Origin: Squalus acanthias
Taxonomy: Eukaryota
Assembly: GCA_030390025.1 (NCBI GenBank)
Contig: CM059432.1
Location: forward strand, 17,548,001 to 17,612,000
Length of the DNA: 64,000 bases
Reading direction: 5' to 3'
Shown: one piece after another, positions 43,897 through 64,000 of the stretch
Numbering within the stretch: the first letter of the stretch is position 1
Layout of the letters: each line of letters begins with the position of its first letter
The notes under the pieces: generated by a model
Seen by the model: the letters and a program-made list of their open reading frames with translations, nothing else
Databases searched by the model: none
Told to the model about the DNA's origin: nothing
Made by a program: the position numbers and the translations under genes

Positions 43897-45103
43897 ATGG
43901 GAGCCATTTATTTCTTTCCCTACTGGGCATCCGATGAGGACGAACAACAGCCGCGGCAGCAGCAGAACCATGAACAACAGCAGCACCAACAGCAGCAGTA
44001 ACAACAGGAGCGCCAAGCTGCTGCTCACCCACCTGAAGCTGCACAGGACAGAAGGGGCCAGCGCATGGAAGGCCGTCGGTGCAGGAGATACCCCCCAAAC
44101 AGGGTCTACAGACAGAGGGTCAGCTACCTCAACATGTCTGAGCAGCAGTGCCAAAGGCGGCTCCGACTTTCACGAGAGGTAGTGGGTGACATCTGCGCAA
44201 TGCTGCAACAAGACCTGGAGCCCAGAGTACCAGGTGGACGCCCCTTACCAGTGGCCGTCAAAGTCACCACCGCACTCAACTTTTTTGCCTCAGGCTCATT
44301 CCAGGGATCAGCAGCAGACATCAGCGGCATCTCCCAGGCGGCCGCACACACCTGCATCACGCAGGTAACCGATGCCCTCTTTGCCATCGCGCACAATCAC
44401 ATCCATTTCACCAAGGATCGAGCAAGTGTCACGGCGCGTGCGGTTGGATTAGCTAATCTGGCAGGTTTTCCAAGGGTGCAGGGCGTCGTTGACTGCACAC
44501 ATGTGGCCCTTAAGGCCCTCCATCGCAATCCAGGTATTTTTGTTAACCGCAAGGGCTTCCACTCCCTCAACGTTCAGCTGGTGTGTGACCACAACAAGGA
44601 AGTTCTGCATGTTTGTGCCAAGTACCCTGGCAGTTGCCATGACTCCTTCATACTGCGCCAGTCTAGTGTGCCTCCGCTATTCAGTCCGCCAGACCAACTT
44701 TATGGATGGCTACTTGGAGACAAGGGCTATCCCCTGAAGACGTGGCTAATGACGCCGTTGAGGAGCCCATCCAATGCAGCTGAGGAGAGCTACAACACCA
44801 GAGCCATAATTGAGCAAAACATGCCTGGATAGATCAGGTGGAGCCCTGCAATACTCAGCAGCCGGGGTCTCCAGAATCATCGTGGTTTGCTGTGCACTTC
44901 ACAACATGGCACAGCGTCGTGGCTTACAGATGCCGGAGGACCAAGTGGCTCCTCACATAGCCTCCTCAGATGAGGAGGAGGAGGAGGAGGAGGAGAGAGA
45001 GAACGAACAACTTGCAGAGGCCCCTCAACCAGCGGCAGCATTACGCGAGACCATAGCTGCCCGGAATGCAAGGAACGCACTCATCTTGGCCAGATTTGCT
45101 TAG
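43897..45103 (+). pseudogene. Harbinger (HARBI1-like) DDE transposase, disrupted
   Basis: [41 protein letters not shown]; in-frame TAA at 43999-44001; deletion/frameshift near 44820. Confidence 0.92.
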
Positions 45104-45360: not shown

Positions 45361-48300
45361 CTATTTGTGCAGTTTCTTTCTCTTACGCGTGCTCCTACGT
45401 GGTGCTTCCCCTGTGGCTTCATCAGAAGTGGAGGCCCCCTGCTCACTTTGTTGCTGCTCCTGTCTCGACTCCTTTGGCGGGGGCCCTCTGGGGTTGTGAA
45501 CCTGAGAGGGTCCGGCAACAGTCTGCTGCTCCTGCGGCTGGCCAGCGGTTGAGACGCCGATCTCACTTGGGTGCGGACTCTGGTGGGGCTCTGACCGAGG
45601 ACCTGTCAGTGGCATGGAAGCGTGAGCGCTTGGAGAGGAGCCCCCACCTCCTTGTTGTGTGCCACCAACATCCCTCTCATGGGTCAGGTCCACCTCAGCG
45701 CTTGCAAGTGGCTTGAGAGCACCTTGCTGCACATCAGGGGGGCCATGGGGACCCGTATCTGCACTGGAAGTCCTACTCAGAAGGACTTCCATGAAGGTCT
45801 GGTTCCTCTGTTCAATAGATGACCATCGCTCCTCCAGAGATGTCATTCTATTCAGAACACTCACCATGTTTTCTGCCCTCTGGCGACTTATCACTTCCAT
45901 GGAGGTTGCCATCCTTTCCATGGTGATGCGTTCATGCGCCAATGACTCCACAAAGGCTCTGCTCATGTTTGCTATGGACTCCTCCATTCGCTCCACACTC
46001 GCAGCGACCCTGGAGACAAAACCTGTCAGAGACTCCTGCATCTGTTCCTGGAGTCCCAGCACCGCTGATCTTATGGATGGACCCAGAGGCAGAGGGTTGA
46101 CATGCAGCTGAGCCAAGCTAGGAGAGTCCTGCGCCCTCCGACTAGGACTCTCCACTGCTGTCCCTGTCTCCACCATCTGCTGATGCTCACTTGTGAGCTG
46201 TGATACACCAGGTGACAACACTACTCTATGTCCCGAGGGTCCCACCGAGGTGTGAGTGTCTGCGCTGGTGCTGGGTGCGCTGAGTTCTGCTGACGCTGCG
46301 CCCTCAGAGGTTGCAGCTTCCTCTGAGGAGTCTGTCTGCTCAGGCTGTTCCTCCTGGCTAGTGGGGACGGGTGCTTGCGATGGTCCTGTGGGGGAGTAAA
46401 GGAAAGAGTCAGAGATGTGATGCCAAGGTTACATGCACATTGCATATTGCAGATGATCATAAATCCATCTGTTAGAGCTTCAGATTCATTATCAGCGACT
46501 CATGCAATGACTGGCTCTGTTGCAAAGAAGGGAGGGAAAAAGAGTGGCAGGGCTATAGTAATAGGGGATTCGATTTTAAGGGGAATAGATAGGGGTTTCT
46601 GTGGTCGCGACCGAGACTCCAGGATGGTATGTTGCCTCCCTGGTGCAAGGGTCAAGGATGTCTCGGCGCGGGTGCAGAACATTCTGGAGGGGGAGGGGGA
46701 ACAGCCAGTTGTCGTGATACATGTTGGTACCAACGACGTAGCTAAAAAAAGGGAAGAGGTCCTACAAGTAGAATTTAGGGAGTTAGGAGCCAAGCTAAAA
46801 AGTAGGACCTCGAAGGTAGTAATCTCTGGATTACTACCAGTGCCACGTGCTAGTAAGAGTACAGAGAACAGGATAGTTAGGCTAAATACGTGGCTTGAGC
46901 AGTGGTGTAAGAGGGAGGGTTTTAAATTTTTGAGGCATTGGAACCAGTTTTGTGGTAGGTGTGACCTATACAAAAGGGACGGTCTACACCTGTGCAAAGA
47001 TGGAACTGATGTTCTCGGGGTAATTTTTGATAAAGCAGTTCGGGAGCATTTAAACTAGTATGGCAGGGGGCTAGAAACCTATGTAGTGAAATAGAGGAAA
47101 GTGAAAGGCAGACAGAAATAAATGGTAAAAGGGTGAGGAACAAAAAACAAAGGGCCAAACTAATTCATAAAAAATGTGAGCATAAAAAAAGCCTAAGGCT
47201 TTTATACCTTAATGCGAGAAGCATCAGGAACAAGGTAGATGAATTAGCTGTGGAAATAGAGGTTAATAATTATGATCTAATTGGGATTACGGAAACATGG
47301 TTGCAGGGTGAGCAGGGCTGGGAGCTTAACATACAGGGGTATTCAGTATTTAGGAAGGATCGACACAAAGAAAGGGAGGAGGGGTAGCATTGCTGGTAAA
47401 AGAGGGGATAAATGCAATTGAAAGGAAGGATATTAACTCAGTTAATACAGAATCTATATGGAGCTAAGAAATAGCGAGGGGCGAAAAAAATTAATAGGAG
47501 TGGTATATAGGCCTCCAAATAGTAAAATAGAGGTTGGGGAGGGCATCACGAGGGAAATTAGAGAAGCGTGCAATAAGAGCACAGCTGTCATCATAGGTGA
47601 CTTTAACTTACATATAGATTGGACTAGCCTAATCAGTAAAAATAATGAGGAGGAGGAATTCCTTGAGTGTTTAAGGGATGGTTATCTGGATCAATATGTC
47701 GAGGAACCAACTCGGGAACAGGCTATATTGGACTGGGTACTGTGCAATGAGAAGGGACTAATTAGTAATCTTGTTGTACGGGGACCCTTGGGTCAGAGCG
47801 ATCATAACATGATCGATTTCTCACTCGAAATGGAGAGCGAAGAAATTGACTCAGAGACTAAGGTCCTGAATTTAAACAAGGGGAATTATGATGCCATTAG
47901 ACGGGAACTGAGTAGGTCTGATTGGACAACGTTCCTGGGAGGACTGGAGGTAGATAAACAATGGCAAGCATTTAAAGATAGAATGACAAAATTGCAAAAA
48001 TTGTTTATACCAATCTGGCATAAAAGGAAATCTAAAAAGGTGACTCAACCGTGGATAACAGGGGAAATTAGAGACAGCATAAAATCCAAAGATAGGGCGT
48101 ATAAAATAGCCAAAAAAAGCGCCAGAGCGGAAGATTGGGAACAGTTTAAGATAGAGCAAAGGAGGACAAAGGGCTTAATCAAGAGGGGCAAAATAGCTTA
48201 CGAAAGCAAGCTGGCGGAAAATATAAAAACTAACTCCAAAAGCTTTTATAAGTATATCAAGAGGAAAAGACTGGTGAAAACCAAAGTTGGTCCATTGCAG

Positions 48301-50849
48301 TCAGATACGGGGGAATATATAACGGGAAATAAGGAAATGGCAGACCAACTAAATGCATACTTTGGGTCAGTCTTTACGAAGGAAGACACAAAAAACCTCC
48401 CTGGGATATCGGGAAAAATAGGGACATTGGCAAAGGAGGAACTGACGCAAATCAATATCTCTAAGGATATGGTGTTAAGGAAGCTAAAGGGATTGAAGGC
48501 GGACAAATCCCCAGGGCCTGATAACATGCATCCTAGGGTACTGAAGGAGGTGGCCCTAGAGATAGCGGATGCACTAAGTATGATTTTTCAGAATTCATTA
48601 GACTCGGGAACAGTGCCCATGGATTGGAGGGTAGCTAACGTTACCCCACTATTCAAAAAGGGGGGTAGGGAAAAAGCAGGTAATTACAGACTTGTAAGCC
48701 TTACATCAGTTGTGGGCAAAATTCTGGAGTCCATCATTAAGGATGGCACTTAGCAAATGGGGACAGGATAGGACAGAGTCAACATGGATTTACAAAGGGT
48801 AAATCGTGCTTGACTAATCTATTGGAATTTTTTGAGGGAGTAACTGGTAAAATAGATGGGGGAGAGCCAGTAGATGTGGTGTACCTGGACTTCCAAAAGG
48901 CCTTCGACAAGATCCCACATAAAAGATTAGCATGGAAAATTGAAGCTCATGGGATAAAGGGGAAAGTATTGACATGGATAGAGAACTGGCTGTCAGATAG
49001 AAAACAGAGAGTTGGAATAAATGGCTCATTTTCTGAATGGCAGGCAGTAACAAGTGGGGTACCACAGGGATCTGTCCTGGGTCCCCAGCTGTTCACAATT
49101 TACATTAATGACCTGGATCAGGGAGTCGGATGCAGCATTTCCAAATTTGCAGACGACACTAAACTAGGAGGGGGGGTGGGCTCAGAGGAGGAGACCAGGA
49201 AGCTCCAGAGCGATTTGGACAGACTGGGTGATTGGGCGGATAAATGGCAGATGCACTATAATGTGGACAAGTGCGAAGTTATCCACCTTGGGTGCAGGAA
49301 CGGGAGGGCAAATTATTATTTAAATGGCAATAAATTGGGAGAGGGGGAAGTACAGAGAGACCTGGGTGTTCTTGTACACCAGTCACTGAAGGCGAGCATG
49401 CAGGTGCAACAGGCGGTCAAGAAGGCAAACGGTATGCTGGCCTTCATAGCAAAAGGGTTGGAATACAGGAACAGGGATACCTTGCTGCAGCTGTACAGGG
49501 CACTGGTGAGACCACACCTCGAGTACTGTGTACAGTTTTGGTCGCCTCATCTGAGGAAAGATGTTCTTGCCATGGAGGGGGTACAGCGGCGATTCACCAG
49601 GCTGATACCAGGAATGGCGGGATTGACCTATGAGGAGAGACTATGTAGTTTAGGGATGTACACACTGGAGTTTAGAAGATTGAGAGGGGACCTCATAGAA
49701 GTGTATAAAATTCTGACAGGTCTAGACAGACTAGATGCAGAAGGAATGTTTCCCTTGGCGGGTGAGAACAGAACTAGAGGACATAATTTAAGGATAAGGG
49801 CTAAACCATTTAGGACAGAAATGAGGGGGAATTTCTTCACTCAGAGGGTGGTGAACCTGTGGAACTCATTGCCACAGAGGGCAGTGTACGCCAGCTCATT
49901 AAATATATTTAAGAGGGAATTAGATATATTTCTACAGGCAAAAGAGGTTAAGGGTTACGGAGAGAAGGCGGGGACGGGATACTGAATTGGAGGATCAGCC
50001 ATGATCTCATTAAATGGCGGAGCAGGCTCGAAGGGCCGGGTGGCCTACTCCTGCTCCTATCTTCTATGTATCTATGTATCTATGAGATGGAACACTATTC
50101 AGTCACCAGCTTGCTCTGATGCACCCGTCTGTCCGTCCCCCACTTGCATTTCCTCCTCTACGCCCACGATCTCCAGGACCGCATCCTCCCAGGGGGTGAG
50201 CTGGGCTAATGAGGGTGGCCCTCCTCCTGTCCTGGCTCTTTCCCTTTCATTGTGAGCTCTCTTTTCCTGCAATGAGGGAGACAAGTGGAGTTTGAGTGAG
50301 ATTGAGGGAGTGAGTGTAGAGAATCCATAGCATAGATGCTTAGAAGGAGACAAAGATGGATTGAGCTGGCGAGACTAAGGGCCCTCCCTGTGTGTTGTAA
50401 GTTGTTTCCAAAGCATGACAGTGATAGGGAGTGTGAGGGCTGCATAGTCAAATAGTAAGGTGAATGTGACCATTGAGGGAGAGGGAATGGGTAAGGGTGC
50501 ATGGATGTCAGTGTCAAGTGGAATATGGAGGAAGAGGTTGCTAAAGCTGAGTGCTGGTGAGGAGAGGCAATGGGGATCAGATTGAGGGTGAAGGGAAAGT
50601 CATACTCACTTTAGCAGTACGTAGAAGGTCATGAAACCTCTTCCTGCACTGGATCCAGGTTCTGCATGTGAATGATAAAGAGGTGACCTCCTGGGCGATC
50701 TGGACCCACACAGCCTTTGTCTGCTGGGGAGGCTTCTTCCTCCCTGAGGAGGGGAAGAGCACCTCCCTGTTGGCTTTTGCTCCATCCACCAAAGCCTGAA
50801 GGGCAACGTCATGGAACCTGGGAGTAGCCCTGAGCCGTTGGCTGGCCAT
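45361..50849 (-). CDS. Harbinger Myb/SANT-like DNA-binding protein, three exons (50849-50610, 50266-50107, 46385-45361), 474 aa, frame intact
   Basis: RFHDVAL...EVLF...WVQIAQEV...QCRKRFHDL; GT-AG introns in phases 0 and 1 join without stops; basic C-terminus RRSTRKRKK. Confidence 0.85.
46470..50084 (+). mobile_element. 5'-truncated CR1 LINE inside Myb intron 2
   Basis: GDSILRG/HVGTND/DGLHL esterase; YLNARSI, IGDFN, SDHN; PQGSVLGP, FADDTK; (TATGTATC)n tail; frameshifts near 47380 and 48745. Confidence 0.95.
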
Positions 50850-51974
50850 TCCTGCTGCAGGTTTTTAGATTAGAGGTCCAAAAGCTTGGCAGCCTGCAGA
50901 GGAAGCAAGGCTTGTCGCAGACCTTAAATGCAGCAGCAATGATGACGTCATCGGAGGCGACTTTCAGACTGGAATAACTCATTGGAACTCAATTGGCCAA
51001 TTAAGTTAAAATCGCATCATTCATCCACATTAATCTGGAGTTGGGGGGGCAACACGAAATGCGGGTAACACGACCCCAACCCGACCCCAAGACAAAATCC
51101 AGCCCATAGAATATGGCCTTATCTACCCGCCAAATCTGTTCAGTTCATTGTCTGAATTTGGCGGGCCTGCTACCAGTAACTGCTCTGTAAGTGTCAAATG
51201 GGTTTTTGGATGGTTTGCATCCTGTCGATCTTCTTGGCTGATTGCTGGTGATGGGTTTTGTGTTTTGGGTTCCTAGGCTGATCTATAGCCTAGTCCTGGC
51301 TGCTCTGTATTATGCATGTTTCTTGATGGGCTCTGCAATCGGTTTGATGGGACCTATTGTTTTGGGTGGGACTGTCTTCTCCTAGGGTCTATTGTCAAAA
51401 TGGTAATGCATGCTGGGGCTTTGAGTGAGATCATCCCGGTTCCCCAGACAAGCAATTAACTGCAATACCCAAAACTGCTTTTACAGAGCTCGAACCCTAC
51501 TTCCTTCACAGCCTTTTCTCCCTTTACAGGCCCAGACATGTTTTTAAAATGCCAAAACTTGGTTTTTGGTCTTAAATTCCTTATGTTAGGCCCAAATGCA
51601 TTTTTATCACTCTGAGGTAGTTCCAAAGTCCTTTTTCCTTAGGTTTTGGGGATCTGCAAATTTTGGAAACCTTACAGTCCCTCCTGCGATACTTTAACTC
51701 ACTACAGTATCGTTGTGGGTGGACAAAATTCCTGATCCCTGAAAAGCCAACCTTCCCCTGTATTACCTAAACTAAAACCCAAAAACATACATTCCCCTTT
51801 TTGGTGTAGTGTTCCAATACATACAGGTAAGAATCAATAATACATACACATCCAAGCACGGAGGGGGTCCAACACCCCTACACTACTTGGAAAAAACCCC
51901 AAAATACATACATAGAAAGAAAATAACACACGATCACAAAACTTCTTTATTTTTAGAATCGATTCAGGCTTGTT

Positions 51975-54220
51975 TTATACTTGGTAAGCTTTGTTGCAAT
52001 GTTTTTCCCAGGCTTTCTCATGCCGGGAATGGAGCATTCTGTCCTTCCCCTCGCATTTTGTACACAGTAAGTACAAGACTATCCAGAGCTGGCAAACCGC
52101 TAAGATGTGGGAGGCCATCCTAATCCAAGAAGGAACCTCTATGTTTTCAAAAATGTCCCACCAGGGTGGAACCGTGATGGCCGAAATCTCAGCCCCTATC
52201 TCGAGTGTCTTTTGCTCTAGGGTGTAGAAATGCTTCTGTGATACCTGTACAGCTTTTAGTAAGACGGTAAGGTGTTCGGGTAGAGGAGGAATCTTATAGC
52301 CGAAGAAGGTGACATAGTTTTGCAAGTTGGTAATGTTTTCCCTTACAGTGAGGTGAACAGTTGAGGGTTCAGGAATCGGGGACAATCCGTTCCTGGGCTA
52401 CTTGAACTTCTGCCTCGGGTTTAAAGCAGAAACTGCTGTCACTCACCGGACACCAGAAATGCTGTCCATGCTGGTAGTGGGGCGCACTTGTGGTGACACA
52501 ATATGTCCCACCCCCTATGAATGCTACCTGTGGGGGAACATGGTCTTGTGCCATTACCTCCATGGTACAGTTGATAGGTCGTGCGCCAGCAGCTTTAAAC
52601 CCGCACTGTGGTCTAGAGTAGGCGCTCAAGTGCTGGGGACACAGTATTATGTGTGAACCCCGGCTCCGGCACCCGGAGAGGTCAGTACCTGTCATAGCGT
52701 GCTCCCACTTTATGACATAAGGTGGGACCTCTGCGAAACGGACGTGTGCAGCCCCTTGAATGATCCCAATGTTCTCCACCCTGTATACCGGTGCGGGTCG
52801 GGCTGTCCCACCCATGACCGGCATCCTCACTACTATCGCCATGATAGAGTGATTGGAACGTCCACAATCTACTGGGACTGGGTAGGCTTCAGAGGCTAGG
52901 CGGAGCTGACACGGGCTCAGTGAATTGCTGAATGGGTGGAGGGCTGCGAGGTGTTTGTTGCTAATCCAGGAGGGGACCAAACCTTGTTTTAAATCCTCCA
53001 GGGTGTTCACTGTTTTAGCATGTCTCTCCAGCTTAGCAATTATCTCTTTTAGATGGACCATCATAGCTTGGTCCTCGTGTAGCTCTGAGCCTACCACTGT
53101 GTTCCCATCCGTTAGGATCTTTCTCAACTGGGTTTTTAAACCATTTATCTGTGTTTGTAGCTCTATGTCATCTAGGCTATTTATTACTGAGGATCCTGTA
53201 TTATATGTTGTGAAAATATCGTTCCAGGTCCCCCTTCTTTGTCTCCCTGCGCCCATAGTGTGCTCTGCGTGTAATCTGTACAGTTCTGCTTTGTCCACGT
53301 AGGCAAAGACAAATTCATAGAATTTTCTAAATATTTCCTTTAACAGGGCCTGGTATAGCTGTTCTGTCTCCTTAGGACACCATTTAGGTAAGTGTACCTC
53401 GGTAAGGTTTAATATTACTGAAGCTACTGCATAGTGTACCCCCTGATAAAGTACCTTTCGGTCAGTACTAGGACTAGCCCATTCTCTGGTCCCTTGGTGG
53501 TGGTAGGACACCTTTCCTCTACTGTTCGTGAGGTCGTGGTCGTGGGCAGGGGCTTTCGGGGGCGGGCTACTAGTTCGGTGGCGTTGACTGGGGTCGGGGA
53601 CTGTGGGAGCGCGCACACATGTAGGCTAGAATCCCACCCCATCCCCTCCCCGGCATCTTGCCATTGTCTGGAGAAGATGATGGATATGCCTGTGGAGCAG
53701 GCTTTCTCTGACCCCCACATACAAACATAGACTCCCTGTTCCGACTCACACCACTTATCCCAACACACACTCACTCCTCCTTTGGTCCCTGTGATTGTCC
53801 GGTAGGTGTCGTTCCCTAATCTTTCCCAGTCGGCTGTATGGTCCCCTGCATCCTGCTCAGTTTCCTGAGCCACCACCACCTATTCAGGGGAATTCGTCCC
53901 TTACAGGTAAGGCACACACGCTTCCCCTCGGTGACACTGACCCTTGTGGCAACGACCTGTACTCTGGGGCATGGGAGGGAGGCCTCCCCGTACGTGAACC
54001 CGGTCTGGCTGGAGTATTTAGTAGAGTTGGACCCCAGCCACCCTGGCCACCTTCCCTCGTGGAAGTAGATGGCGAGCTCCTCCACTCCCCATTCGCCACC
54101 CCCTGCGGTGACGACCGGTGCTCTCTCTCCCGAGCATCCATAGATGTGGGAGTCCTCCATGTCACCTCGGTCACTGATGCTCACCCCTACCAGGGCGAGC
54201 AGGAGCAGAACCCTTCTCAT
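51975..54220 (-). pseudogene. env: env: class I fusion glycoprotein with N-terminal Ig-like domain (~750 codons, three frameshifts near 53830, 53460, 52375)
   Basis: Splice acceptor tgtgtccctacAG at 54234 just before the ATG; signal peptide MRRVLLLLALVGVS; RQRR at 53244-53233; heptad-like region; Cys-rich region; TM ASHILAVCQLWIVLYLLC; short tail. Confidence 0.85.
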
Positions 54221-54901
54221 GCCGATTTCCTTTCTGTAGGGACACACAAAACAGACAGCCATGTCCCGAGAAGGTTCTCTGGCTGGACAGGTGATCGATT
54301 CTTGAGAAACTTTTAAACTTACTCACTAAAATCCTTAAGACTAGAATTCCTAAAATCCTAAAACTACCAAACTGTAAAACACTTAAAAAATACTAAAACT
54401 CTGTACATTCGCCGCCCGTCTCCGGACGGCCAGGTCAAATCCTGTATGGCCTCTGCCTTGGGCAGCTTCTGAGCAGCCGGTACGCCTGGGCGTGAGGTGG
54501 CCTGTACCGCAGGACCCTGAGAGTCCTTCTTAAAACAACTGAGGGTTTCCCTGAATCCCTGACGATCCTGGGAGTGTCTCCTCCTGTGCTACAGCACACT
54601 GCCCCCTATGGTGTGGCTGCTGAGTCCCTGTCCTGTCATGTGGGTTCCTTGCAGCCTGAGGCTGCAGGCTGGGGATCCCTCTTCTTAGAATGGCCCCTGA
54701 CTTTGGGTATTCTCTTTCGGGTCGCAGCCACTGCTGGGCTGAACCATTGATGTACCGGTGACCACGGCAGTTTAGGCTGTGGTGTGCGAGGAGACCTTCT
54801 CAGGACTCTGGCCACTGGGGGTGTGCCTGAGTCCCACAAAATCGGTGGAGTATACCCTCCTGTGATACAAGCCACTGTCCTGACCGCTGCAGTCTGTGAG
54901 T

Positions 54902-55020
54902 CTTGGTTTTTGGTCTTAAATTCCTTATGTTAGGCCCAAATGCATTTTTATCACTCTGAGGTAGTTCCAAAGTCCTTTTTCCTTAGGTTTTGGGGATCTG
55001 CAAATTTTGGAAACCTTACA
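54902..55020 (-). repeat. Remnant of 5' LTR (first 119 bp)
   Basis: Identical by eye to 51558-51676; begins TGTAAGG on the minus strand. Confidence 0.9.
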
Positions 55021-55357
55021 GATATAGTAACCTAAATGCTTTTTGTCTGGAAAATGACATCAAGAAAAGCTTAAGAGTATCTTGAAAAGGTTGACTGAGA
55101 AGGAAGAGTAAATTACCATATGCTTTAATCAACATAAATTGGATAATTATTATTTACATAATTTACTGACACCTTCCAGGCTTTTCACTATTCTACAAGG
55201 GCTGGGGTTTACAACCTGCAAGACTGGCATGTCTAACTGCCTCTGGAGCCAAATAGAGGAGGGGCGTGTCTTGATTGACATGGACAGTAGCCAATAAGGA
55301 GAAACCAAGGCATTTGTAGAATTGAAAAACTCAACCCAGTAATCCCAGCTCCAACCA

Positions 55358-56427: not shown

Positions 56428-56842
56428 ACTAGGTTTGTATTCACTTGAGTATAGAAGGTTAAGGGGTGGTTTAATTGAGGTATGTAAGATGATTAAATGA
56501 GTTGACAGGGTAGATAGTGAGAAACTATTTCCTCTGGTGGTGGAGTCCAGAACAAGGGGGCATCACCTTAAAATTAGAGCTAGGCTGTTCCTGAGTGATG
56601 TCAGGAAGCACTTCTTCACACAAAGGGTAGTGGAAATCTGGGACTCTCTCCCCCAAAACAAGCTGTTGAGGTTAGGTCAGCTGAAAATTTCAAAATGGAG
56701 ATTGATAGAATTTTGTTAGCAAGGGTATTAAGGGGTATGAAACCAAGGCGGGGAGATGGAGCCAAGGTACAGATCAGCCATGATCTAATTGAATGGCGTA
56801 ACAGGCTTGAGTGGCTGAATGGCCTACCCCTGTTCCTATGTA
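56428..56842 (+). mobile_element. CR1 3' fragment
   Basis: ESRTRGH...FFTQRVVEIW and CR1-type 3'UTR. Confidence 0.85.
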
Positions 56843-61677: not shown

Positions 61678-62208
61678 GTGAAGGATATACTTGCATTGGA
61701 GGCAGTTCAGAGACGATTCACTCGGTTGATTCCTGAGATGAGGGGGTTGTCTTATGAAGAAAGGTTGAGCAGGCTGGGCCTATACTCATTGGAATTTAGA
61801 AGAATGAGAGGTGATCTTATTGAAACATATAAGATACTGAGGAGGCTCGACAAGGTAGATGCAGAGAGGATGTTTCCCCTCGTGGGGAAATCTAGAACTC
61901 GGGGGCATAGTTTTAGAATAAAGGGTCGCCCTTTTAGAACTGAGATGAGGAGGAATTTCTTCTCTCAGAGGGTCGTAATTCTGTGGAATTCTCTGCCCCA
62001 GAGAGCCGTGGAGGCTGGGTCATTAAATACATTTAAGGTGGAGATAGACAGATTTTTGCAAGATAAGGGAGTGAAGGGTTATGGGGAGCGGGCAGGGAAG
62101 TGGCTTTGCGCCCAAGATCAGCCGTGATCTTATTGAATGGCAGAGCAGGCTCGAGGGGCCAAGTGGCCTATTCCTGCTCCTATTTCTTATGTTCTTATGT
62201 TCTTATGT
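61678..62208 (+). mobile_element. CR1 3' fragment
   Basis: KDILALEAVQRRFTRLIP...FFSQRVV; (TTCTTATG)n tail. Confidence 0.92.
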
Positions 62209-62482: not shown

Positions 62483-64000
62483 GGGGGAATTTTCCAGGGG
62501 GTCACCGGGTGCGATCGGTGGCGGGTCAGGTGGGAAAATGTTTTTTTTGATAGCCAGTCAGGACCCCGCTGTCAACCCGCCACCACGTGCCTTTACCAAA
62601 TGTCGGGTCTGTCAGCGCTGAGCAGACCCGACACGCAGCGGTGGGGGAGGCAATTCAAGTCATTATGACCTTGATAACAGAGGATTAACAACAATTTTCA
62701 GCTCACCTTTAGAATTTACCAGCTCGCCAACGGGGTCCACGCTGCTCGGGGATCACGTCTGTTAAGCTGGGCGGGAGTTGAATGGCCATGGAATCATCTC
62801 ATTACTTGACAGCTTGAAATGTGCTATAAAAGCTCCCATCTCACAGCTGTTTACTTTCCAAGCTCAGAAGCTGTTGCTTACTGCATTTGTAACACAGGTT
62901 TATGCAGGTTGCAAGAGTTTGGAGCAAAGTCTCTATCCAGTGTCATCTCATTGGAACAATCTCTCACCATTGACAGATCGCTTCTGTCATCTCAAGTTCA
63001 CCTGCCATCTATTCCATCAGCATGGGTACGGTTTATACTCTCTCACCTTGGTCCTCAGAATCTGACCACGATCAGCTGCAACACCAGCATCACCAGGCAC
63101 ACCAGTAGCACCAACAACAACACCAACCTTCTCCGCAAAAACCTGATGCTGCACAGGACACGGCATCAGCATCCGACCACATTGCTGCCCGGGATGCCAG
63201 GGATGGCCTCACCATGGCCACATTTACTTCACTGACACTGTACACCCTGGCTGCCACATGATGCGCCAGGTTGGTACCAGTCCACACCAACACCATAAAG
63301 CATCCCTACAATGCCCAAGCCATTCCTTTCACACTCATCACCATTGTGGGGGTACCGTTATGTCTCACCATTCACTGCAACTCACTAAGCCACTTCCAAA
63401 GGTGCACACAAATCTGTCCAAGAACGCAAAGTGTTGAAAACAAAGATTTCAATGTTTGACAGCACATTAACAGAACCTTCACATGAACATTGGCTAAAAC
63501 ACACAAGTGCCTACCCTTGTGTGATGTTAGTTGGTATGATTGGACTAGGATGAGGGTGAGTGTGAGAGGTGGCTAGTGAGATGGGGAAGTGATAATGTAG
63601 ATAGAGAGAGATGGGTGGAGGTGCAAGGTAAGTTGGTGTGAGTAAGGATGTGCAGGAGTAGGGCAGGGAAGGCAGAGTGATGGGGATGTGATGAGTGGCA
63701 CAGCAGGATGAGGTGGAGTATGGCTTTGCAGTAACATTTCGTGATCTATTGAGATCATTGAAAGGTTTGCGCCACTGCAGCCTGGTCCTCCTGACGACAT
63801 CCCTACTTGTGTCCTCCTGTGCAATGTGCAACCAGGCTGCGTTGGTCTCCTGGGGAGGTCTCTTTCACCCATTGGAAGGGAAAAGGACCTCCCTGTGTGC
63901 TCTGACTCCCTCCATGTGCTTATGGGAGTCATGGGAGAGCCTGGGTGCAGCCATGCACCTCTGTGCAGTGCTCGTCAGTGCTTGCAGCACCTCAATGCTG
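62483..64000. mobile_element. Internally deleted Harbinger element running off the window end
   Basis: Starts GGGGGAATTTTCC; minus-strand Myb exon 1 remnant HIAQE...RTRLQWRKPFNDL at ~63690-63930. Confidence 0.6.

Follow-up and report, generated by a model that had tools for sequence, protein, structure and literature searches.

A decayed endogenous retrovirus of Squalus acanthias with a probable F-type envelope gene

What kind of envelope protein was carried by the endogenous retrovirus (ERV) whose remains lie in a 64,000-nucleotide stretch of the Squalus acanthias genome, and to which retroviral lineage did it belong? The stretch, here called the window, comprises positions 17,548,001 to 17,612,000 of contig CM059432.1 (GenBank assembly GCA_030390025.1). 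A preliminary description, made from the letters of the sequence, had pointed to a frameshifted envelope gene (env) whose core resembled the transmembrane (TM) subunit of foamy viruses and the fusion (F) protein of paramyxo- and pneumoviruses, and had proposed a lokiretrovirus-like or undescribed lineage in what was probably a cartilaginous fish. According to our analysis, the window very likely contains a copy, now dead and internally deleted, of a high-copy ERV of cartilaginous fishes, the env of which encodes a class I, F-type fusion glycoprotein. The F-type structural group comprises paramyxo/pneumovirus F, foamy-virus Env and coronavirus S2. On the available evidence the family is probably neither a lokiretrovirus nor a typical foamy virus.

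The env gene and the fold of its product

The env gene of the window copy is located on the minus strand, as are all parts of the element given below. Read from stop to stop it forms four overlapping open pieces: 53816-54322, 53424-53879 (with the motif GLVLV), 52369-53625 (418 amino acids (aa), from KVLYQG to QVAFIGGGTYCV) and 51975-52397, the TAA stop of which occupies 51975-51977. All motifs quoted in the preliminary description were recovered in the order it gave, and those of the third piece are KVLYQG, RQRR, VVRMPV, VENIGI, HVRF, PYVI, DLSGC, IILC, QCG and QVAFIGGGTYCV. The genome search for full-length relatives that it had recommended yielded an uninterrupted 794-aa copy on a different contig (L002), which was used as the reference for the defects of the window copy (96.6% identity over 2287 nt). 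The two differ by 1-nt indels at exactly three places (near 53853, 53458 and 52377), in agreement with the three frameshifts deduced earlier; a 96-nt in-frame deletion near 53007, which took 32 codons from the end of the first long helix, comes in addition. The window copy is unable to make an Env protein.

The 794-aa Env is composed of a signal peptide, a head of ~230 aa, an F2-like segment of 82 aa, the motif RQRR, a fusion peptide, a first heptad-repeat helix (HRA), a cysteine-rich beta core, a second heptad-repeat helix (HRB), a Trp-rich stretch, a TM segment and a short tail. In the window the start region (54173..54262) has one ATG at 54262, a second at 54220 and a signal peptide, MRRVLLLLALVGVSIS, at 54173-54220. 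It is followed by the beta-rich N-terminal accessory region (53481..54172), which is ~230 aa long, possibly immunoglobulin (Ig)-like and probably the receptor-binding part, and which contains the first frameshift. The F2-like segment (53245..53480) runs from GLVLV through KVLYQG to the cleavage site and contains the second frameshift. The furin-type site RQRR (53233..53244) is the sole R-x-[KR]-R motif in all env pieces of the window and in the uninterrupted relative, and R-x-[KR]-R is kept in the aligned homologues. Downstream are the putative fusion peptide and HRA (52981..53232), which correspond to helices 340-458 of the relative and are shortened by the 96-nt deletion, and the beta-rich, cysteine-rich core that matches the F domains (52378..52980; VVRMPV...VENIGI...DLSGC...CP...CGF...NC...GGGTYCV...FC), next to which the third frameshift is found. 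The gene ends with HRB (52176..52289; helix 695-726 in the intact relative) and with a Trp-rich membrane-proximal stretch (PPWWD), TM segment and 25-aa cytoplasmic tail (51978..52169). A single strong hydrophobic segment is present in the window env, near the C-terminus (top Kyte-Doolittle window), and both the signal peptide and the C-terminal TM segment noted earlier were found.

The short segment preceding RQRR had been described as F2-like and as standing in place of a large surface (SU) subunit. The first part of this description held, with 82 aa before the only furin site. The second part had to be given up, as ~230 beta-rich residues precede the F2-like segment and the SU-equivalent amounts to ~310 aa. 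A gamma-type Env, already excluded in the preliminary description, was rejected here as well: neither CX6CC nor a CC dipeptide occurs in any env piece or in the intact copy, and no TM-family Pfam match was obtained.

Pfam searches with the window pieces, the 794-aa copy and 21 family members returned only weak unrelated matches, and phmmer with the 418-aa piece gave nothing meaningful among PDB sequences. When the 21-sequence family alignment was used as a profile against 177,635 PDB sequences, the top two matches were F0 of human parainfluenza virus 3 (hPIV3), with E 5e-4 and 5.6e-4; the third was an unrelated DARPin, a designed repeat protein (E 0.023). The hPIV3 match is colinear, profile positions 289-514 pairing with chain residues 256-478 from the beta core to HRB, with successive cysteines aligned. 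The comparison by AlphaFold and Foldseek with F-type proteins, proposed earlier, was made with a model built from the uninterrupted copy and gave 186 PDB matches at E<=1e-3 (best 1.6e-7, probability 1.00). The best 48 of these 186 are all paramyxo- or pneumovirus F proteins, pre- or postfusion; in the VIA re-alignment all candidates were tied within one unit, with identities of 6-19%. Since the structural alignments with F begin at the GLVLV motif (model residue 261-262), which corresponds to the first residues of mature F, the F2-like segment of ~80 aa before the furin site is borne out. The search of BFVD gave 38 matches at E<=1e-3, the best of which (8.8e-11) were mononegaviral and jingchuviral glycoproteins. 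Env of walleye epidermal hyperplasia virus 1 (WEHV-1) ranked sixth (1e-9), and baculovirus F (3.5e-8 and 7e-7), paramyxovirus F0 (8.6e-8), Env of walleye dermal sarcoma virus (WDSV; 2e-6) and feline foamy virus Env (1.7e-5) were also matched. The modelled fusion core can be superposed on the solved structure of foamy Env, and language-model look-alikes, used as a lead only, fell in Gypsy/Baculo_F, Fusion_gly and CoV_S2 clusters (0.91-0.94). The likeness to foamy TM and to F that was first noticed in the motifs is thus found again by profile search, Foldseek and BFVD, with significant similarity to solved F proteins.

The order of F2, polybasic site, fusion peptide, HRA, beta domains, HRB and TM is colinear with that in paramyxo/pneumovirus F (PF00523; hPIV3 F 1ZTM/6MJZ, Newcastle disease virus F 1G5G/3MAW, respiratory syncytial virus F), which provides both the best profile-sequence match (E 5e-4) and the best structural ones. 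Unlike these proteins, the shark Env has the extra N-terminal head of ~230 aa, a weakly hydrophobic fusion peptide and no PF00523 match; furthermore, the genome that encodes it is that of an LTR (long terminal repeat) retrovirus, whereas F belongs to negative-strand RNA viruses, and a separate gene for an attachment protein is lacking. Strands are predicted for the head, which is possibly Ig-like to judge from a Pfam Ig_3 match of E 0.04, leads to Ig clusters in the ESM Atlas (<=0.81) and one Env homologue carrying the UniRef label 'Ig-like domain-containing protein'. The placement of a probable receptor-binding module at the N-terminus is shared with coronavirus spikes.

Several observations weigh against the F-type assignment and against a well-preserved family. 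PF00523, PF03408 and PF12259 matched 0 of the 21 family members at E<=1, and a whole-genome scan with PF00523 gave 0 matches under a strict first look in which the control likewise gave nothing. The Env model is poor (mean predicted local distance difference test (pLDDT) 49.5, predicted TM-score (pTM) 0.38), the core alone reaching 60-89 and residues 1-260 staying below 35. The TM-scores of the Foldseek matches are also low, at 0.12-0.24 by query and at most 0.40 by target. Hydrophobicity is lacking in the 20 residues that follow RQRR (mean Kyte-Doolittle 0.00), a stretch conserved among the homologues. Finally, an env open reading frame (ORF) of at least 740 aa from ATG was found at 1 of 19 related loci; intactness was measured by direct ORF calling, the open-frame lengths from the genome search listing having been rejected. 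The proposed fold, which is in part a matter of models, rests on the agreement of independent methods, and no single score would be sufficient for it.

For the intact protein we infer that it forms trimers, is cleaved, binds a receptor through its head and fuses membranes, and the mechanism proposed is the standard one of class I fusion proteins. The Env precursor would trimerise and would be cleaved by furin at RQRR into an SU-like part (head and F2) and a TM-like part, the former being kept on the membrane-anchored part by a disulfide or by contacts. A trigger, probably the binding of the head to its receptor, would free and extend HRA, upon which the fusion peptide would enter the target membrane. 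HRB would then pack back on the HRA coiled coil into a six-helix bundle, and the membranes would merge.

The provirus remnant and its family

The env had been assigned to an LTR element, and in the copies examined it does follow integrase and precede an LTR. A 120-nt repeat beginning TGTAAGG, found at 54902-55021 and 51558-51677 with 100% identity, is the sole direct repeat between the flanks. The 5' LTRs of other copies start at the same base as this repeat. Positions 53614-54898 of the window align at 92% with the sequence that precedes env in the copy on C13, and this homology ends at 54898. Taken together, these two observations mean that a stub of the 5' LTR, its initial 120 nt (54902..55021), is fused directly to the pol tail. 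Between the two, gag has been lost completely and pol almost completely. The remnant between integrase and env (54323..54898) consists of the pol tail and a pre-env leader, and in fuller copies the SH3-like end of the integrase is just upstream. On the other side of env there is a non-coding spacer (51678..51974) with a short purine-rich run, AGGAGGGA, adjoining the LTR. No ORF of at least 50 aa occurs in these 297 nt from the env stop to the LTR, and the statement that tas/bet-like genes are absent before the LTR stands. The 3' LTR (51096..51677) is cut short at about 51096, because in other copies it extends past the matching point. In total, the window copy retains LTR stub, pol tail, env and truncated LTR. 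A primer-binding site was sought in two copies with eight tRNA motifs, the 3' end of the LTR not being fixed, and the best candidate had at least 6 mismatches in 18.

Between the integrase SH3-like domain and env there are ~200 codons (L029 8313-8942, plus strand; window 54323-54898, minus strand) that are open in some copies and have no family match. They may represent a tail of the integrase or an additional small gene.

The fuller copies follow the general plan of the Retroviridae, namely LTR, gag, protease (PR), reverse transcriptase (RT), tether with added RNase H, integrase, env and LTR. The order in the fullest one (L029) is gag zinc knuckle, a weak RVP, RVT_1 (E 3.4e-35), RT_RNaseH (the tether; 6e-16) with RNase_H (1.7e-15), Integrase_H2C2 (6e-19), rve (2e-14), an SH3-like end (SH3_Tf2-1, 1e-6) and env; the zf-CCHC match in gag (E 0.017) is under the Pfam cut-off. 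By its genome plan, the doubled RNase H included, the element is a retrovirus. In 8 of 10 loci inspected upstream of env, the gag ORF is closed by a stop and pol, beginning LEPAQP..., then continues in the same frame. A motif resembling the major homology region (MHR) was seen in the shark gag as a short alignment (E 0.007) with the Gag_p30 region of a caecilian gene model. This model was dropped as a tie of the shark gag to class I, being chimeric with two RT stretches.

Five of these 8 loci (L024-L028, on C1, C8, C7, C9 and C20) have an open gag ORF of 279-614 aa, a stop, a lone ORF of 250-300 aa and env. They are an amplified form in which most of pol was lost and gag and env were kept. At yet another locus (L022; G000:C13:72822000-72830500), the uninterrupted env is followed by the LTR and then directly by leader and gag-start homology, which suggests either two tandem proviruses with a common LTR or a recombinant.

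The search of the 3.7-Gb dogfish genome with the 418-aa piece listed 199 matches and 11,769 first-look candidates, 100 of which were scored, and these numbers put the env family far beyond chance. Of the 19 related loci, 9 were stop-free in the 210-codon env core and were compared together with the window copy (10 sequences, 45 pairs). Since the 10 loci with stops were excluded, the values describe the better-preserved copies. The median pairwise ratio of nonsynonymous to synonymous substitutions (dN/dS) was 0.26 (interquartile range 0.24-0.35), with a median dS of 0.126. This indicates purifying selection on env during the spread of the family.

When 1.84 billion representatives were searched exhaustively with phmmer, 26 proteins were found at E<=1e-3. 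Ten of these were looked up: 8 are from sharks and 1 is from the coelacanth. The shark genera are Mustelus, Chiloscyllium, Heterodontus, Heptranchias, Pristiophorus and Scyliorhinus. No ray-finned-fish Env was among the matches of this search. Word-indexed searches returned close chondrichthyan relatives alone, those named being from Pristiophorus (sawshark), Scyliorhinus (catshark) and Rhinoraja (skate). The homologue names fit the cartilaginous-fish host assumed in the preliminary description. Judging from the sequences found, the env family seems so far confined to cartilaginous fishes and the coelacanth. All of its homologues in the databases are called 'uncharacterized'. In three sawshark gene models (P0004, P0013 and P0027) env fragments are fused to Niban-like, cadherin-related and zinc-finger proteins; either the annotation is artefactual there or pieces of ERVs have been exonised.

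Place among the retroviruses

The pol gene does not point in one direction. A quick RT tree of 53 sequences, with a gypsy outgroup and no labelled retroviral references, ended in an unresolved basal trichotomy of a shark clade, an amphibian-coelacanth clade and a large clade of vertebrate ERVs with the integrase C-terminal domain of murine leukemia virus (MLV) type. RT-RNase H of an intact family pol (P0035) scored 230 bits with the MLV-related XMRV and 195 bits with prototype foamy virus (PFV), and the family integrase is closest to that of PFV. Overall, the family pol lies at about the same distance from gamma- and spumaviruses and has a high score against Ty3. Its nearest non-shark relatives come from amphibians and the coelacanth, and the closest pol outside the sharks is that of the frog Pyxicephalus adspersus (44% identity). 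The PR-RT model is confident (pLDDT 86.8). Its best match in BFVD is an unnamed entry, Q88285_1 (34% identity), followed by interleaved gamma fragments (31-35%) and foamy Pol (21-30%), and epsilonretroviruses do not stand out among the matches. A piece of the WDSV Gag-Pol, which probably splits RT, is the sole one from that virus among the matches listed (rank 48, 20% identity over 303 columns). The PR-RT protein had no relative among the viral contigs searched.

Several origins of the gene have to be weighed. A chance reading frame, or a host gene unrelated to viral envelopes, would be in line with the lack of a Pfam family match and with the public gene models that fuse pieces of it to Niban-like, cadherin-related and zinc finger genes. 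This is almost certainly not the explanation, as env is always between integrase and LTR in the copies examined, candidate copies number in the thousands with a dN/dS of 0.26, the class I architecture is complete, and the F-type matches are consistent by four methods. The lokiretroviruses are a sister lineage to all other retroviruses, and their description (PMC7947760) reports an F-like Env with RX[KR]R site, coiled coils and TM in ERVs of lower vertebrates, and a gag-pol-env plan with tether and RNase H. These traits of Env and genome plan are shared by the shark family. Its pol, moreover, is about equidistant from gamma- and spumaviruses, scores highly with Ty3 and is basal in the quick tree, and the nearest non-shark pol sequences are from amphibians and the coelacanth, groups that have lokiretroviruses. 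The loki-like affinity proposed earlier is nevertheless very improbable and was not upheld. In the same study, the lokiretrovirus Env matches PF00523 at E 2.2e-7, whereas 0 of 21 shark members do so at E<=1, and no smc gene was seen in the shark family. The survey reported there gave 0 positives in six chondrichthyan genomes (Callorhinchus, Rhincodon, Chiloscyllium plagiosum, C. punctatum, Scyliorhinus torazame and Leucoraja), but the env family is present in three of the six (C. punctatum, C. plagiosum and S. torazame), presumably linked to the same pol. Pyxicephalus adspersus, the source of the closest outside pol, is not marked positive in that survey. In addition, lokiretroviruses are reported in at least 120 species of ray-finned fish, whereas the exhaustive phmmer search returned no Env from such fish.

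A spuma-related (class III) ERV of cartilaginous fish, with a much-diverged foamy Env, is unlikely, although more credible than a lokiretrovirus. Foamy viruses are not known to have a CCHC knuckle, MHR or in-frame gag-pol. In the shark family, by contrast, gag contains both a CCHC knuckle and a motif like the MHR, and pol comes after it in frame, an orthoretrovirus-like arrangement. The family also lacks accessory genes, tas/bet-like ORFs among them, and gave no match to PF03408 or Gag_spuma. Its Env has an ordinary signal peptide and a single furin site, while foamy Env gp130 (PDB 8RM0; PF03408) has a long leader peptide and two furin sites. The extra domain of the shark Env precedes the F2-like segment, whereas the foamy one is inserted between the subunits according to the foamy Env study (PMC11468914). 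The higher score of the P0035 RT-RNase H with XMRV than with PFV also speaks against a foamy origin. An epsilon-like (class I) ERV, with an ordinary, uncharacterised epsilonretrovirus-type Env of F-type fold, is possible though doubtful. The predicted Env structures of WEHV-1 (Q9WHI8; E 1e-9, the best retroviral match in BFVD) and WDSV (A4GTG3; 2e-6) fit the model better than foamy Env does, gag-stop-pol in one frame is found in gamma- and epsilonretroviruses, and epsilon-like ERVs are known from the elephant shark (PMC4422223). Both epsilon Env and that of the shark family are non-gamma, non-beta proteins of fish retroviruses, and two papers (PMC3758190; bioRxiv 2021.11.23.469661) call the former uncharacterised and neither gamma- nor beta-type. 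On the other hand, the likeness is structural only, with 12% identity between the 794-aa shark Env and proteins of 1317 (WEHV-1) and 1159 aa (WDSV), and no named epsilon Env gave a sequence-level match among the 1.84 billion representatives. The shark clade also lies outside the vertebrate ERVs with the MLV-type integrase end in the quick tree, which held no labelled epsilon sequence. The WDSV Gag-Pol piece, probably cut within RT, ranks only 48th at 20% identity, and there is no accessory ORF after env. Finally, it is conceivable, and we suggest it tentatively, that the family is a deep, not yet described retroviral lineage of cartilaginous fishes with a coelacanth relative, having an F-type Env with Ig-like head. 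The F-type Env, the core of which foamy viruses, epsilonretroviruses and lokiretroviruses would share, would then be the ancestral envelope of retroviruses in place of the gamma-type one.

F-type retroviral envelopes as such were already known. F-like Env was documented in lokiretroviruses in 2020 (PMC7947760), and foamy-virus Env was linked structurally to F in 2024 (PMC11468914). The former presents four scenarios for F-like Env in retroviruses as an open question. The Env of errantiviruses (Ty3/gypsy), which is grouped with baculovirus F (PF12259, PF07253), is also an F-type fusogen in an LTR retroelement, and Gypsy/Baculo_F clusters were the top language-model look-alikes (0.93-0.94). The shark pol differs from that of errantiviruses in being vertebrate-retrovirus-like, with tether and added RNase H, and an errantivirus survey (bioRxiv 2023.10.26.564294 / eLife RP108449) reports no vertebrate element homologous to the invertebrate ones. 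What appears to be new is a family that current domain libraries miss and that has an N-terminal head. It adds a third or fourth retroviral group with an F-type core, in the oldest jawed vertebrates and with an orthoretrovirus-like gag-pol plan. The receptor-binding module, if the head is one, was added at the N-terminus and thus in a different way from the foamy insertion. The structural match of the walleye Env proteins suggests, as far as models go, that the 'uncharacterised' epsilon Env falls in the same F-type group. Should a Pol tree set these lineages apart, the F-type core would be the best candidate for the original retroviral envelope.

The shark env family may also account for the 'no Env domain detected' of shark ERV surveys. 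SnRV-like and epsilon-like elements were reported in one such survey (PMC4422223). A catshark 'ERV-Spuma' consensus, with no detectable Gag or Env domain (PMC10699275), may be related to the family. The chondrichthyan syncytin-like Env of a 2026 preprint is of a different, disulfide-bonded type. No description of the shark env family was found in the literature compared, which did not extend to a paper on cartilaginous-fish endogenous foamy viruses (J Virol 2023) or to preprint supplements.

Other elements in the window

The window holds other mobile elements as well. In a LINE (long interspersed nuclear element) at 46327-49985 on the plus strand the first ORF is esterase-like (GDSL lipase / OSK match); an Exo_endo_phos_2 endonuclease and RVT_1 are also present, and the 68-nt tail of this element is repeated at 49993-50060, 56772-56839 and 62116-62183. 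A Ser/Pro/Glu-rich open frame of 355 aa at 45364-46428 (minus strand) had no Pfam match. A fragment of a PIF/Harbinger-type DDE transposase is located at 44002-44829 on the plus strand (DDE_Tnp_4, E 5e-20). Six kb from it, at 50580-50864 on the minus strand, there is a Myb/SANT-like DNA-binding ORF (Myb_DNA-bind_5, E 1.6e-10) such as accompanies PIF/Harbinger transposons, and an ORF resembling the latter is present at 63511-63864, also on the minus strand.

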